A program made the position numbers and the translations under genes. 64,000 nucleotides of DNA from Escherichia coli (GTDB lineage: Bacteria > Pseudomonadota > Gammaproteobacteria > Enterobacterales > Enterobacteriaceae). Below are positions 3,143 through 50,201 of the stretch, piece by piece; within the stretch, counting starts at the first letter, position 1; every line of letters starts with the position of its first letter. Location: NCBI RefSeq assembly GCF_041886205.1, contig NZ_CP169029.1; one strand, 5' to 3'. The notes under the pieces were generated by a model. That model was not told where the DNA came from. It worked only from the letters and a program-made list of their open reading frames with translations, and did not search any database.

Positions 3143-3826
3143 ATGAAACTGTTGATTGTCGAAGATGAAAAGAAAACCGGAGAATACTTGACCAAAGGGT
3201 TAACCGAAGCCGGTTTTGTAGTCGATTTGGCCGACAACGGGCTGAATGGCTACCATCTGGCGATGACCAGTGATTATGATCTGATAATCCTCGATATTAT
3301 GCTGCCGGACGTGAACGGCTGGGATATCGTGCGCATGTTGCGTTCCGCCAATAAAGGGATGCCGATTCTGTTGCTTACCGCGCTTGGCACCATTGAACAT
3401 CGCGTCAAGGGGCTGGAGTTGGGGGCGGATGACTATCTGGTGAAGCCGTTCGCTTTTGCTGAACTGCTGGCGCGGGTGCGCACTCTCCTGCGGCGCGGAG
3501 CGGCGGTAATTATCGAAAGTCAGTTTCAGGTTGCCGATCTGATGGTCGATCTCGTCAGCCGCAAAGTCACCCGCAGCGGTACGCGCATCACGTTGACCAG
3601 TAAAGAATTTACTCTGCTGGAGTTTTTCCTTCGCCATCAGGGCGAAGTGCTGCCCCGCTCGCTTATCGCTTCGCAGGTATGGGACATGAATTTCGACAGC
3701 GACACTAACGCTATTGATGTGGCGGTGAAGCGGCTACGCGGCAAAATCGACAACGACTTTGAGCCAAAGCTGATTCAAACCGTGCGTGGCGTGGGTTACA
3801 TGCTTGAGGTGCCGGATGGTCAGTAA
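3143..3826 (+). CDS. cusR: Copper-responsive response regulator CusR (OmpR family)
   Basis: 227-aa ORF with receiver domain and winged-helix C-terminus; divergent from cusC. Confidence 0.9.
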
Positions 3827-45964: not shown

Positions 45965-47074
<1,110 letters not shown>

Positions 47075-47137
47075 TGGGCGGTATTCTGAAACGGCGATTG
47101 TCGTGAGAACAGAATGGTTGCACCAGAATACAGATAT

Positions 47138-47167
47138 AAAAAAACCGACATGACAGTCGGTTTTTTT
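47138..47167. terminator. Bidirectional intrinsic terminator (selU on plus, candidate sRNA on minus)
   Basis: A7-CCGAC-ATGACA-GTCGG-T7: hairpin flanked by an A-run and a T-run, so it works on either strand. Confidence 0.6.
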
Positions 47168-47225
47168 ATTTTTTCCGCCCAAGACTTGGTGGTTCCGGGC
47201 AGAAATGAAACAGTCCTCATCTAGC
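47140..47225 (-). ncRNA. Candidate antisense antitoxin sRNA (about 86 nt) of a type I toxin-antitoxin pair
   Basis: Transcript inferred from the promoter at 47232..47260 to the terminator at 47138..47167. Its 5' end (reverse complement of 47207..47225) is complementary to 47393..47411 upstream of the toxin ORF, about 19 bp including 2 G-U pairs. Confidence 0.5.
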
Positions 47226-47231
47226 AAGTGA

Positions 47232-47260
47232 ATTATAAGTCAGGATGCCTCCATATTCAA
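47232..47260 (-). promoter_or_regulatory. Near-consensus sigma70 promoter driving the candidate sRNA
   Basis: On the minus strand: TTGAAT, 17-nt spacer, TATAAT (perfect -10), oriented away from the toxin ORF. Confidence 0.6.
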
Positions 47261-47485
47261 ACAGCTATGTTGGCGATACAATCCCGACGCTAGTAGTGAT
47301 ACTGCCTCAAGGGATTACCGCAGTGCGGAAAAGTACTTTTAAGTCCTGGTCAGGATACAGGTGGTGCTGATTCTGGTGCTCTAATTTGGAGAGAGGCAGT
47401 CCTCATCTAGCACATGAAGAAAATCATAGTTACAGGCAACGTAAGGGTAAGCTGTGATTGTCTTTCTCCCTTAAGGGAGCAACGG

Positions 47486-47569
47486 ATGAAAACTTTTCTC
47501 GATAAAGTTCTCATCGTTCTTAAGGCGCTAATCGCGCTGCTGGAACTGATCCGTCAGTTTATTGAATAA
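47486..47569 (+). CDS. Candidate type I toxin, 27-aa hydrophobic peptide (DinQ/ZorO/TisB-like)
   Basis: ATG preceded by AAGGGAG with 7-nt spacing; product MKTFLDKVLIVLKALIALLELIRQFIE is a single amphipathic helix closely resembling DinQ as I remember it (shared ALIALLELIR); followed by a hairpin terminator. Below the ORF-track size cutoff. Confidence 0.6.
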   Translation: MKTFLDKVLIVLKALIALLELIRQFIE

Positions 47570-47589
47570 CTGAGGAAACGTAGCTAAGG

Positions 47590-47615
47590 CCGAAGGTTTA
47601 CCACCTTCGGTCTTT
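47590..47615 (+). terminator. Intrinsic terminator after the toxin ORF
   Basis: CCGAAGGT-TTACC-ACCTTCGG 8-bp stem followed by TCTTT. Confidence 0.5.
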
Positions 47616-47641
47616 AAAAAAACCGACATGACAGTTGGTTT
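47616..47641. repeat. Second copy of the A7-CCGACATGACAGTYGG hairpin (direct repeat of 47138..47163)
   Basis: AAAAAAACCGACATGACAGTTGGTTT matches 47138..47163 at 25 of 26 positions; the two copies bracket the toxin/sRNA module. Confidence 0.5.
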
Positions 47642-47672
47642 CATATTTATTGCCAAAATGCACACTGTTCAT

Positions 47673-47770
<98 letters not shown>

Positions 47771-47786
47771 AATCTAACACCTGTCA

Positions 47787-50201
47787 TCACCCCGCAAACT
47801 GCCTGAACAGCGCCTTACCCTTAACCAGTCTCGCGCCCAGCCAGCCGCCGAAAAGCGACAGCAGCAGCGCACCGCTGCACGGCAGAACAATCCACAATCG
47901 CCAGTCTGGCTCCCACGGGAAATCAAACACTTTCGCCTGCAACACTGCCAGTGCCGTTTCCGCACCAATTGCGGCCACCAGGCCGGAAACAAACCCAAGC
48001 ATGGCGAACTCACACCACAATGTCGTGCGCAGCAGTTTTTTCCCCGCACCGAGTGTGCGCCATACCACCAGCTCCTGATGACGCTGGCGCATTCCCACCT
48101 GCACCTGTGCCAGCAACAGCAACATACCGCAGGCGGTGACCAGCACCACCATCACCTCCAGCGCCCGACTTACCTGCTCCAGCACCTGACCGACCTGTTT
48201 TAAAATCGCGCCAATATCTAACAGGCTAATGGTCGGGAACTGGCGGTTGAGTTGCGTCAACATGCCGTTGCCATTCTCCCAGCGGAAACTGGTAAGCCAG
48301 CTCTGCGGTTGCCCGTCTAATGCCCCTTCCGGGAAAATAAAATAGAAATTAGGCCGCAGACTTTCCCAGTCCACTTTGCGCAGGCTGGTCACTTTAGCGC
48401 GGAACTCCTGGGTATCGCCCATAAAAGTCACGGTATCACCGAGGGCAACGTTTAAGCGTTTCGCCAGCCCCTCTTCCATCGACACTTCATCGGCTTTTGG
48501 CGGCCAGTTACCGGCGACAATCGGATTATGATCGGGCCGCGTATTTTGCCAGGTAAGATTGAGTTCGCGATTAAGCGCCTCATCTTCATTACCTTCTGTC
48601 GGCTTATCGTTAATCGCCGTCAGCCGCGCCCGCACTACCGGATAAAATGATTCCGGGACTATATGATGTTCCGCGAGGAACGCTTTTAGCGGTGCTACCT
48701 GTTCTGTGGCGATGTTAATTAAAAAGTAGTTCGGGCTTTCTGGCGGTAGCTGCTGCTGCCAGCGGTCGAGCAGATCGCCACGCAATACCAGCAACAGCGC
48801 CAGCAGCATAAAGGAGAGCGAAAATGCCGAAAGCTGACTTAACGTTGACCACGGCTGACGTAACAGGCGGCTAACCGCCAGGCGCAGAGGCAGCGATTTC
48901 AGCGTCATGCGGCGAAGTACATTCAGCAGCATCCAGCCCAGCACACCGCACAGCAAAGCCAGTACTACCGCGCCAGCCAGCACCGCCCAAAGCAGCATGC
49001 TGCCACCCATTAATCCGGCGAGCAGCAGCACAACCACCACACTGACAATCGGCAGATAAAACTTCAGCGGCCAGACGTTCGCTACCACATCATTACGTAA
49101 TACGCGTAAAGGCTGCGTTGCCAGCAACAAGCGATATGGTCGTAGCCCCACCAGCAGCGAGATGACCGTCATGGTGCCCAGCGCCCACAACCACGGCCAG
49201 AGGCTGGCTGGCGGTAGTGCAGCAGGCAGAACGGGCTTGAGCAGCACCATCAACACGTTTTCGAACAACAGGCCTATGGCCCCACCGGTAACGGCTGAAA
49301 GCGCCAGCACCATCAACCACTGACCGACGATTAGCTTACGCAGTTGCGCTCGCCCTGCCCCCAGCGTTTTGAGGATCGCCACCAGATCGTAGCGACTGCG
49401 ACAGTAATGATTCATCGCCACCGCCACCGCTGCCACTGCCAGCAGCAAGGTCAGAAGCGCCGAAAGCAGCAGGAACTGCTGCGAGCGTTCCATCGATCGC
49501 CCCAGCGCGCCTTCGTCCTGTTCCAGACCGTACCAGCGTTGTTCGGGTTTAAGCTGGGGTAACAACCATTTCTCATAGCCGTCGAGCTGGTTCTCGTTGC
49601 CGCCGAATTTATAACGCCAGGTGACCCGACTCCCCGGCTGCACGGCTCCGGTTTTATCGACATCCGCCAGATTCATCATCAGACGCGGAGCCATCTGGAA
49701 GGGGTTAAAACCAGAATCCGGTTCCTGAATCACTTCTCCGGCAATCCGCAAGGTGGCATCGCCCACGTCGATGGTGTCGCCTGTTTTCAGGTTAAGCAGC
49801 GCCATCAGGCGTGGGGCCAGCAATACGCTGCCCGCCTGCGGTTTCAGGCCAGGGGGATTAGTTTGCAGATCGCCATACATCGGGTAGATATCATCCACCG
49901 CTTTGACGTTCGCCAGCTGCGGTGTGTCGCCTGCAAATGTCATGGTGGCGAAAGTCAGCTGCTTGCCGACTTTCAGGCCGCGCTTTTGCGCTTCCTCCAG
50001 CCACGCTTGCGGCACTTCGCGCGAACTGCGCAACGCCCGATCGCCCGCCATAAACTCACGGCTTTGCTGGCTTAAGCCCTTCTCCATGCGATCGCTGATA
50101 TTGCCCAGCGCCAGCACGCAGGCCACCGCCAGGCTTAGCGCCAGCCAGACAATTAATAGCGACGGCGAACGCCATTCGCGCCAGAACCAACGTGCAATCA
50201 T
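47787..50201 (-). CDS. ybbP: ABC transporter permease YbbP (FtsX-like, LolE family)
   Basis: 804-aa ORF with duplicated FtsX-like permease architecture; 4-bp overlap with upstream ybbA. Confidence 0.85.
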   Translation of the reverse strand: MIARWFWREWRSPSLLIVWLALSLAVACVLALGNISDRMEKGLSQQSREFMAGDRALRSSREVPQAWLEEAQKRGLKVGKQLTFATMTFAGDTPQLANVKAVDDIYPMYGDLQTNPPGLKPQAGSVLLAPRLMALLNLKTGDTIDVGDATLRIAGEVIQEPDSGFNPFQMAPRLMMNLADVDKTGAVQPGSRVTWRYKFGGNENQLDGYEKWLLPQLKPEQRWYGLEQDEGALGRSMERSQQFLLLSALLTLLLAVAAVAVAMNHYCRSRYDLVAILKTLGAGRAQLRKLIVGQWLMVLALSAVTGGAIGLLFENVLMVLLKPVLPAALPPASLWPWLWALGTMTVISLLVGLRPYRLLLATQPLRVLRNDVVANVWPLKFYLPIVSVVVVLLLAGLMGGSMLLWAVLAGAVVLALLCGVLGWMLLNVLRRMTLKSLPLRLAVSRLLRQPWSTLSQLSAFSLSFMLLALLLVLRGDLLDRWQQQLPPESPNYFLINIATEQVAPLKAFLAEHHIVPESFYPVVRARLTAINDKPTEGNEDEALNRELNLTWQNTRPDHNPIVAGNWPPKADEVSMEEGLAKRLNVALGDTVTFMGDTQEFRAKVTSLRKVDWESLRPNFYFIFPEGALDGQPQSWLTSFRWENGNGMLTQLNRQFPTISLLDIGAILKQVGQVLEQVSRALEVMVVLVTACGMLLLLAQVQVGMRQRHQELVVWRTLGAGKKLLRTTLWCEFAMLGFVSGLVAAIGAETALAVLQAKVFDFPWEPDWRLWIVLPCSGALLLSLFGGWLGARLVKGKALFRQFAG

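Follow-up and report, generated by a model that had tools for sequence, protein, structure and literature searches.

Two copies of an AgrB-type terminator hairpin lie within a DinQ/Dql-family toxin–antisense RNA cassette at the variable selU–ybbP interval of Escherichia coli

The interval between selU (45980–47074) and ybbP (47787–50201) in the window—the whole 64-kb stretch of E. coli DNA that was analysed—holds a small cassette in which a plus-strand peptide gene and a minus-strand small RNA (sRNA) gene are accompanied by two copies of one hairpin sequence, here called L (left) and R (right). The features of the interval, in order of their left ends, are as follows.

47089–47658, no strand: the block that separates cassette-bearing from empty sites, 570 bp, with both hairpins and all cassette parts inside and the REP units outside
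47136–47169, no strand: left hairpin L, loop ATGACA on a perfect 14-bp stem (inverted repeat I3), including the first 26-mer at 47138–47163
47136–47224, minus strand: AgrB-family putative antitoxin sRNA gene, 89 nt, three hairpins (Rfam RF02891)
47232–47260, minus strand: predicted sigma-70-like promoter of the sRNA, TTGAAT, 17-nt spacer, TATAAT (10/12 consensus matches)
47397–47418, plus strand: predicted sRNA target in the toxin mRNA 5′ UTR, a direct repeat of 47211–47232 (family D2, 20/22 identical)
47463–47482, plus strand: predicted anti-SD/SD stem, CTCCCTT / AAGGGAG (palindrome I8), with the Shine-Dalgarno sequence (SD) AAGGGAG at 47473–47479
47486–47569, plus strand: putative toxin ORF, 27 aa, MKTFLDKVLIVLKALIALLELIRQFIE, and stop
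47586–47614, plus strand: the toxin gene's own terminator hairpin, T1 (fold −17.6 kcal/mol), homologous to dinQ/dql terminators
47616–47641, plus strand: right hairpin R, matching L at 25/26 positions and running in the same direction, directly after T1 with one T (47615) between
47667–47749, no strand: palindromic REP/BIME units, lying between the end of the block and the stop codon of ybbP, with partial Rfam matches to naRNA4 and ES036

The preliminary description had spoken of a toxin/sRNA cassette, and profile matches to AgrB and to DinQ bear this out. The Rfam AgrB model matches the minus strand at 47136–47224 over its full length (53.6 bits, gathering score 40), the predicted fold has a z-score of −4.9, and the gene is colinear with K-12 agrA and agrB. 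Its promoter-like site puts the start at ~47224–47225, which agrees with where the Rfam match begins. The sRNA and the toxin mRNA are divergently transcribed, the 5′ end of the former being antisense to the 5′ UTR of the latter, and an sRNA ortholog with its 5′ 20 nt identical is retained in a divergent lineage (L137). L corresponds to the terminal stem of the Rfam AgrB alignment. It folds at −16.5 to −16.9 kcal/mol and scores as terminator-like on both strands, the plus-strand reading lying downstream of selU. K-12 agrA and K-12 agrB have this very stem, AAAAAAACCGAC/GTCGGTTTTTT; it is found also in the Rfam AgrB consensus, and is retained with another loop in lineage L137, which is ~17% diverged. 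These likenesses identify L as the predicted Rho-independent 3′ terminator of the minus-strand antitoxin sRNA; as an sRNA terminator whose stem is common to K-12 AgrA and AgrB, L is no neutral boundary element.

On the plus strand, the 27-aa peptide scores 40.9 bits against the NCBIfam toxin_DinQ profile (NF041472, cut-off 30) and is identical to K-12 DinQ at 15/19 positions, and its homologues match Pfam PF28061 (DinQ). The gene call made by PGAP is a longer ORF of 51 aa with its start at 47414; the ATG of the 27-aa frame follows the SD at a distance of 6 nt. Positions 47397–47410 are perfectly complementary to sRNA nt 1–14, RNAduplex predicts an imperfect sRNA/mRNA duplex over 47359–47411 (−50.8 kcal/mol), and the layout of sRNA and target matches that of AgrB/dinQ (alignment; PMC5066626). 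Blocks of the 5′ UTR align with dinQ, as does the anti-SD/SD stem, which falls on the dinQ SD stem-loop region; the predicted stem at 47463–47482 can sequester the toxin SD, a mechanism reported for dinQ (PMC5066626). By homology with DinQ/AgrB and DqlB/AgrB, the sRNA would pair ahead of the ribosome-binding site and so prevent translation of the toxin, with the SD additionally held in the local stem. No convincing sigma-70 promoter for the toxin gene emerged from a consensus scan and from inspection of the K-12 agrA–dinQ alignment. A search of 47089–47658 for the LexA box CTGT-N8-ACAG, with one mismatch allowed, likewise found none, and the PGAP label ‘damage-inducible’ is therefore probably a misnomer for this selU–ybbP paralogue. 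T1, in which the stem is followed by UUU only, aligns with its counterparts in six other dinQ/dql modules.

Given an AgrB match above threshold, a DinQ match above cut-off and colinearity with K-12 agrA–dinQ from the sRNA trailer through the toxin terminator, the cassette can be assigned to the published DinQ/Dql–AgrB type I toxin–antitoxin family, in which it is ordinary in kind; the 27-aa peptide is accordingly named a putative membrane toxin and the sRNA a putative antitoxin. The dql family and its mechanism have been published (PMC5066626, PMC12365149): 14 dql sequences were given in 2016 (Kristiansen 2016, PMC5066626), and peptide toxicity and rescue by the sRNA have been assayed for DqlB/agrB (PMC12365149). 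As in K-12 dinQ-agrA/agrB (arsR–gor spacer), the toxin of the cassette is a single helix of ~27 aa whose core is LIALLELIR; a divergent sRNA of the AgrB family pairs through its 5′ end with the toxin 5′ UTR, ahead of the SD, and a stem sequesters the SD; the sRNA terminator has the same stem, and the two loci are colinear from agr trailer to toxin terminator. It differs from K-12 dinQ in lying between selU and ybbP rather than between gor and arsR, in having one agr copy instead of two, in its C-terminus (RQFIE versus RFLLQLLN), in lacking a LexA box, so that it is probably not SOS-induced, in its antisense sequence, which makes cross-talk unlikely, and in the extra agr terminator hairpin behind the toxin terminator.

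The dql genes, including DqlB–agrB of pOXA-48 and other plasmids, belong to the same family, with the same presumed mechanism and no SOS control (PMC5066626, PMC12365149). Both the chromosomes and the mobile elements of Enterobacteriaceae carry them. The peptides nearest in sequence (...LIVLKALVALLELIRQFID) are encoded on Salmonella conjugative/integrative elements and on Yersiniaceae chromosomes. In contrast to these genes, the cassette encodes a peptide that falls below the NCBIfam DqlB cut-off (NF041473, 24.5 bits against 35), and it carries R, a hairpin present in none of the relatives examined. A plasmid origin was considered and rejected, plasmid dql modules being 66–77% identical to the cassette over the 5′ UTR and ORF only; the lone plasmid match at 99.5% is a 1.2-Mb record labelled plasmid.

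The 26-mer noted in the preliminary description, AAAAAAACCGACATGACAGTCGGTTT, is matched exactly at 47138–47163 and recurs at 47616–47641 with 25/26 identity, at the coordinates first given; the sole mismatch in R is C→T at 47636. No 26-mer match arose in 100 dinucleotide-preserving shuffles of the window. In a repeat search the two copies could be extended to 40 nt (83% identity; 47137–47176 and 47615–47654, spacing 478 bp), the likeness beyond the 26-mer being T-rich only (10/16, own count). The window holds two copies of the hairpin. Across 5,426 complete E. coli genomes, the exact hairpin is confined to the 1,330 cassette genomes, with a per-genome median and maximum of 2 places alike, and the exact hairpin with its loop was found in 0 of the remaining 4,096. 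The pairing of C in L with T in R recurred in 9/9 cassette sequences from other strains, Shigella flexneri and metagenome contigs included.

Variability—the number of different occupants that the selU–ybbP interval can hold—is the setting in which the repeats have to be read. K-12 carries rhsD, ybbC, ylbH, ybbD, ylbI and ylbG between ybbP and selU, just as the preliminary description stated, and its observation that no Rhs sequence is present at this site holds for the selU–ybbP interval of the window; its view of the locus as a variable hot spot also stands, with at least four kinds of occupant. Strain ATCC 8739 is one carrier of the cassette, which is present in 1,332/5,426 complete genomes (~24.5%), always with both hairpin copies; a short selU–ybbP distance was found in 1,898/5,426, leaving ~570 empty sites (~10%, short spacer, no hairpin), and ~3,528/5,426 (~65%) have larger inserts, all of these allele counts being BLAST coverage summaries rather than a genome-by-genome reading. 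The inserts comprise rhsD/ylbG in K-12, O157 and O104:H4, and an Hcp-effector island in ST131. The Rhs/T6SS-effector islands, such as the K-12 rhsD element, resemble the cassette in being alternative alleles of the same interval; they are unrelated to it in sequence and function, their junctions lie away from the hairpins, and they hold no hairpin copy. Whole intergenic segments are swapped here—empty, dql cassette, rhsD/ylbG or Hcp-effector island—most likely via recombination in the flanking core genes. REP units are present in empty sites too (L004 and L005) and lie outside the cassette; they number one to three copies according to strain and are expanded in two alleles (L007 and L136).

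Decay of the cassette could also be seen. A 108-bp deletion in ~190 genomes is an intermediate in which the toxin was lost first and the antitoxin kept, and an sRNA-only remnant is found in a distant lineage; loss of the toxin first fits the addiction logic of such modules. Lineage L137 suggests that the cassette is old. Since the neighbour of selU in Salmonella and Citrobacter is a different gene (methionine-type ABC transporter), these outgroups do not polarise the selU–ybbP indel. The 51 nt that follow selU in K-12 show marginal homology to the cassette trailer (p ~0.02), too little to count them as a diverged form of it. One strain, BS-01 (L135), has the left part of the cassette beside rhs; its assembly is visibly noisy and it was left out of the evidence. 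Candidates for more diverged cassettes (P0004/L145, H311/L152, P0032/L148 and P0031/L149-150) proved without exception to be E. coli alleles of the usual kind.

The preliminary description suggested that the module was gained or lost by recombination at the hairpin, which would then be a bidirectional terminator resident in the spacer, its two copies being scars of integration. Direct repeats of 25/26 identity do bracket most of the module, and the locus is indeed highly polymorphic, but the empty sites contradict this history. The four that were read (Nissle-type PBP8, AST216, CUVET19-1396 and AH20K059; L004, L005, L008 and L009) contain no copy of the hairpin and join ...ATTCTG|TGCAC..., where in the window ATTCTG ends at 47088 and TGCAC starts at 47659. 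The 570-bp indel, for which a 2-bp TG ambiguity makes 47087–47656 equally possible, thus spans both copies, starting 47 bp to the left of the L stem (49 bp to the left of the 26-mer) and ending 17 bp beyond R. Empty sites with a single hairpin, which the preliminary description proposed to look for, were not seen: ≤6/5,426 genomes could hold such an allele, showing the flank or the hairpin but not the cassette interior, a bound taken from the counts of cassette genomes versus flank/hairpin genomes, and one of these is a different junction. A synthetic single-hairpin query returned no perfect one-piece match at the top of the ranking, the tool having joined L and R pieces. Nor does the repeat mark the boundaries of rhs elements, a point that the preliminary description proposed to check. 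The hairpin is absent from K-12, O157:H7 TR01, O104:H4 and two further rhs alleles, as from the Hcp alleles read, and the Rhs/ylbG and Hcp-island junctions are placed elsewhere: at 47123/47124, or else at, or within, the stop codons of selU and ybbP. The hairpins are break points of no allele at selU–ybbP. Furthermore, the stem of the hairpin descends from the agr sRNA family rather than from the site, and no recombinase or integrase gene was found near the block, whose flanks are selU and ybbP only and which contains no long ORF; repeats left by integration are highly improbable. That the repeat belongs to a dispersed family of terminators or REP-like palindromes, and flanks the module by coincidence, can practically be dismissed. 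The bare stem AAAAACCGAC...GTCGGTTT is admittedly commonplace, with Pseudomonas, Colwellia and Streptococcus among the matches listed, and REP units adjoin R, but the hairpin with its loop occurs only in cassette-bearing E. coli, at ≤2 per genome, and twice in the 64-kb window. Wider scans for the hairpin yielded candidates that were set aside: the pattern AAAAACCGACN{5,6}GTYGGTTT proved too generic in species genomes, with unrelated terminators among the matches listed; its E. albertii match (L039) is a prophage-region terminator; and the L137-type hairpin gave a single chance match in metagenomes, in a high-GC coding region.

Both hairpin copies are internal to a small toxin/antisense-RNA cassette of known kind, and it remains to account for R. 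An agr hairpin copy downstream of the toxin was found in 0/6 other dinQ/dql modules examined (K-12 dinQ, two from Salmonella mobile elements, one from a plasmid and two from Yersiniaceae chromosomes), and compared with all six the T1 tail of the window contains additional sequence. R, fixed among the carriers examined, is missing from the other family members examined; it is lineage-specific. An alignment of short T-rich tails suggests that R arose through a small local duplication of L (~26 nt) into the T1 tail, where the copy would have replaced the distal U-rich stretch that reads CTTTAAYATTT in relatives. We consider it very probable, overall, that the repeats are two copies of the AgrB-sRNA terminator, both within the 570-bp dql block, and that R is a local copy of L.

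Two other accounts of R were weighed. R could be the functionless remnant of another agr-like sRNA gene, or of another module in tandem; tandem duplication is frequent among type I modules, agrA and agrB stand in tandem at the K-12 dinQ locus and end in identical terminators, and the likeness of L and R reaches 40 nt at 83%. It is nonetheless unlikely, for no minus-strand AgrB match is found at R even at E≤1, and T1 and R adjoin, with nothing between them of the ~45-nt trailer associated with agr terminators in the cassette and in K-12. The sequence after R is closer to the family T1 tail than to the agr body (alignment and own comparison), the similarity stops 4 nt before the block boundary, so that a deletion must end exactly there, and the fixed substitution weakens the minus-strand hairpin. 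Alternatively, R might serve as a second contact for the antitoxin in the toxin mRNA, with kissing loops AUGACA/UGUCAU extending to a 26–27-bp duplex and RNase III cleaving the mRNA at its 3′ end. The 6-nt loops of R in the mRNA and of the sRNA terminator are perfectly complementary, the predicted duplex is of −42 to −48 kcal/mol with a co-folding gain of ~17 kcal/mol over separate folds, R is fixed in all carriers, and the tail of only 3 U behind T1 makes read-through into R plausible. Against this, complementarity is automatic for any direct repeat read in opposite directions, transcription of R is putative, no such site occurs in the other dinQ/dql modules examined, and in strain PapRG-06-5 the L loop is altered to ATGACT with no compensating change in R. 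A second contact is accordingly given only a slim chance.

If R, as a local copy of L, is functional, it would be a second intrinsic terminator or a 3′ stabiliser of the toxin transcript, most plausibly a second terminator. R scores as terminator-like on the plus strand only; its C→T change retains a G·U pair in plus-strand RNA and leaves an A·C mismatch in minus-strand RNA, and the folds are −8.5 kcal/mol (plus) and −6.3 kcal/mol (minus), an argument for a plus-strand role that draws on one fixed substitution. A hairpin in this place would also shield the toxin gene from the REP cluster and from the convergent ybbP.

In the par (Fst) system of Enterococcus plasmid pAD1, RNA I and RNA II are complementary in their terminator hairpins as well as in repeats at their 5′ ends. 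The cassette would share this arrangement only with a transcribed R, the mRNA of the toxin and the RNA of the antitoxin then being complementary in their terminator hairpins too. The par RNAs, however, are convergent, with one bidirectional terminator physically common to both, whereas those of the cassette are divergent and owe their complementarity to a duplicated copy; there is no sequence relationship between the two systems, and the contact in the cassette is putative.

For general biology the weight of these observations is limited, the family being published and PGAP already naming the gene dinQ in ~1,300 complete E. coli genomes. The selU–ybbP interval does offer a clean natural series of empty site, type I toxin–antitoxin module, Rhs element and Hcp-effector island, together with intermediates of decay. 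The second copy of the antitoxin terminator, lying behind the toxin gene, is a minor trait, fixed and particular to this lineage, which might reveal a second antisense contact. Were such a contact real, it would turn a one-site module of the DinQ/AgrB type into a two-site, par/Fst-like one, and it may account for the fixation of R in all ~1,330 carriers.

In the E. coli window a 26-nt sequence, AAAAAAACCGACATGACAGTCGGTTT, lies at 47138-47163 and, as the preliminary description had reported, recurs as a direct repeat at 47616-47641 with a single C-to-T change; no such match was found in any of 100 shuffles of the window, and a repeat search gave a longer pair of 40 nt with 83% identity, spaced 478 bp apart. 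As a perfect hairpin with a 14-bp stem (47136-47169), the left copy (L) resembles a terminator whichever strand is read; for the right copy (R) this holds on the + strand alone. Both lie in the selU-ybbP spacer, the features of which are as follows.

Features of the selU-ybbP spacer
47074, + strand: end of selU/mnmH
47136-47224, - strand: AgrB-family antisense RNA (Rfam 53.6 bits, gathering score 40, full model covered)
47260-47232, - strand: promoter of this sRNA, TTGAAT-17-TATAAT, start placed at ~47224
47463-47482: palindrome of the Shine-Dalgarno sequence (SD) and an anti-SD, downstream of the sRNA target
47486: ATG of the toxin ORF, encoding a 27-aa peptide, MKTFLDKVLIVLKALIALLELIRQFIE
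47586-47614: strong hairpin (T1, -17.6 kcal/mol) 3' of the toxin ORF, directly followed by R
47787, - strand: end of ybbP

In the Rfam scan, L is the terminal stem of the AgrB-family sRNA. A second repeat within the cassette (47211-47232 and 47397-47418) gives the first 14 nt of this RNA uninterrupted complementarity to + strand 47397-47410, and the predicted duplex with the toxin mRNA spans 47359-47411 (-50.8 kcal/mol). The 27-aa peptide passes the NCBIfam DinQ model (40.9 vs 30), does not pass the DqlB model (24.5 vs 35), and is identical to K-12 DinQ at 15 of 19 residues; colinearity with K-12 agrA-dinQ extends over the whole stretch, from immediately past the terminator of the sRNA as far as that of the toxin gene. 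With its sRNA, antisense target, SD palindrome, DinQ peptide and K-12 colinearity, the cassette is, on sequence grounds, a dinQ-like (dql) type I toxin-antitoxin module, of the family of Kristiansen et al. 2016 (PMC5066626), a plasmid member of which was validated in 2025 (PMC12365149). The PGAP name for the gene in carriers is already dinQ, and the PGAP model in the window is a 51-aa ‘damage-inducible toxin DinQ’ from 47414 (47414-47569); judged by homology and SD position, translation probably starts at ATG 47486 and yields the 27-aa peptide. No LexA box was found in the cassette, and because the promoter is without one the label ‘damage-inducible’ is probably inaccurate here. At 47611, in the 3' arm of T1, the window has T; C or another base occupies this position in eight other cassettes. 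The T (GGTC vs GGCC) turns a G-C pair into G.U.

K-12 agrA and agrB have exactly the stem of L, AAAAAAACCGAC/GTCGGTTTTTT, which also occurs within the Rfam AgrB consensus; L was therefore inherited with the sRNA gene and does not belong to the selU-ybbP site as such. Taken without its loop, the stem is a terminator motif widespread among bacteria. Among 5,426 complete E. coli genomes the hairpin including its loop was found at 2,611 places in 1,330 genomes, two being both the median and the highest number per genome; it was confined to cassette-bearing E. coli and did not occur in the remaining 4,096 genomes. Direct repeats also flank a dql/agr module on a Salmonella contig that carries integrase and SprT-like genes; these are of another sequence, AT-rich and 23 bp long (AAAAGATATATAACAATATATAA at 2683-2705, AAATGATATATAACATTATATAA at 3285-3307), and may be coincidental or iteron-like.

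In the same 5,426 genomes, the spacer/cassette query (47075-47660) matched, at least in part, in 1,332, and 1,326 held the cassette interior; selU and ybbP ends lay near each other in 1,898, which by subtraction gives about 570 short ‘empty’ spacers, and about 3,528 genomes had larger inserts. K-12, O157:H7 TR01 and O104:H4 carry rhsD plus ylbG at the site, and ST131 carries an Hcp-family T6SS effector gene and three DUF2931 genes (L146, 9780-14003); both the statement that K-12 holds rhsD here and the view of the locus as a variable hot spot were thus borne out. The left junction of the ST131 island falls within the final codons of selU, so that the product has 368 aa, and the short spacer of AH20K059 retains only the island's right-end terminator. 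From the cassette or empty junction to ybbP, REP/BIME units (window 47667-47780) occur as one to three pairs depending on the strain (loci L005, L007 and L136), adding 100-200 bp. In an ENA metagenome contig, a full cassette is accompanied by a hybrid selU (82% identical overall, its 3' end identical to the window) with purE-purK directly upstream, a gene order from which the ~20-kb allantoin region is judged to be missing in that strain.

The empty sites of PBP8 (Nissle-type), AST216, CUVET19-1396 and AH20K059 all join ATTCTG directly to TGCAC, with REP units as sole content and no hairpin. By this junction, a single 570-bp block (47089-47658) separates cassette and empty alleles; both hairpins lie inside it, and its ends show 2-bp microhomology and no terminal repeats. 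A flank or hairpin match without the cassette interior was found in only six genomes, and a synthetic single-hairpin query gave no perfect one-piece match. One of the six, O157:H7 TR01, has an rhs/ylbG allele (L003, 9001-9060) that keeps window 47075-47123, including the first 35 bp of the block, with the ylbG IS remnant abutting 47123, 12 bp short of the stem of L; this junction type is rare (at most six genomes) and suggests that a cassette allele was replaced there by the rhs/ylbG allele or recombined with it. The rhs and Hcp alleles break at the selU and ybbP stop codons and lack the hairpin. Neither acquisition or loss by recombination at the hairpin, nor its marking of rhs boundaries, is therefore supported: the repeat is real and locus-specific, but it lies inside a toxin-antitoxin cassette of a known kind and marks neither a scar of recombination nor the boundary of an allele.

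In an Escherichia-like lineage ~17% diverged (Logan SRR31919996; selU and ybbP only ~83% identical to the window), selU still adjoins ybbP and the sRNA gene alone of the cassette is present (1222-1404), which suggests that the cassette is old at this site. In this sRNA the terminator stem is unchanged but has another 9-nt loop (AAAGTGAAT), the first 20 nt at the 5' end and the -10 box are identical, and the middle stem is altered in shape yet stable. The ybbP 3' end takes the place of its -35 region, the sequence past the sRNA leads directly to the ybbP stop, and there is no toxin, R or REP. A 108-bp deletion (47398-47505; e.g. CFSAN061770) between imperfect repeats AGTCCTCATC and AGTTCTCATC is present in about 190 of the ~1,326 cassette genomes, ST69-type strains among them; it removes the antisense target, the SD and, from the toxin ORF, the first six codons plus the first two bases of codon 7. 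Keeping the sRNA and both hairpins, this allele looks like a toxin-null with orphan antitoxin. Both decay forms have lost the toxin and kept the antitoxin, as would be expected of an addiction-type module.

None of six other dinQ/dql modules compared (K-12 dinQ, two from Salmonella conjugative/integrative elements, one plasmid, two Yersiniaceae chromosomal loci) has an agr hairpin copy downstream of the toxin. In the toxin-terminator alignment, ~20 additional bases follow CTTT in the window, interrupting the family tail CTTTAAYATTT. R is unlikely to be the stump of a second agr gene; the bases 3' of it, TTTCATATTTATTGCC, are by our own comparison closer to the family tail than to the agr body, and no AgrB match was found at R on the minus strand. 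In all nine cassettes read, Shigella flexneri included, L carries the C and R the T. R is thus best read as a short duplicate of L, old and fixed, within the tail of the toxin terminator.

Transcription would cross L in one direction and R in the other, so R in the mRNA would be complementary to the sRNA terminator (loops AUGACA and UGUCAU; predicted duplex 26-27 bp), and co-folding the two gains ~17 kcal/mol over separate folds. A second antisense contact between them is conceivable on this modelling, but the complementarity is an automatic consequence of the repeat, and one strain has a loop change in L without compensation. In + strand RNA the C-to-T change in R retains a G.U pair (-8.5 kcal/mol); in - strand RNA it gives an A.C mismatch (-6.3 kcal/mol). 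The duplicated hairpin would most likely act as an additional terminator or 3' stabiliser of the toxin transcript.
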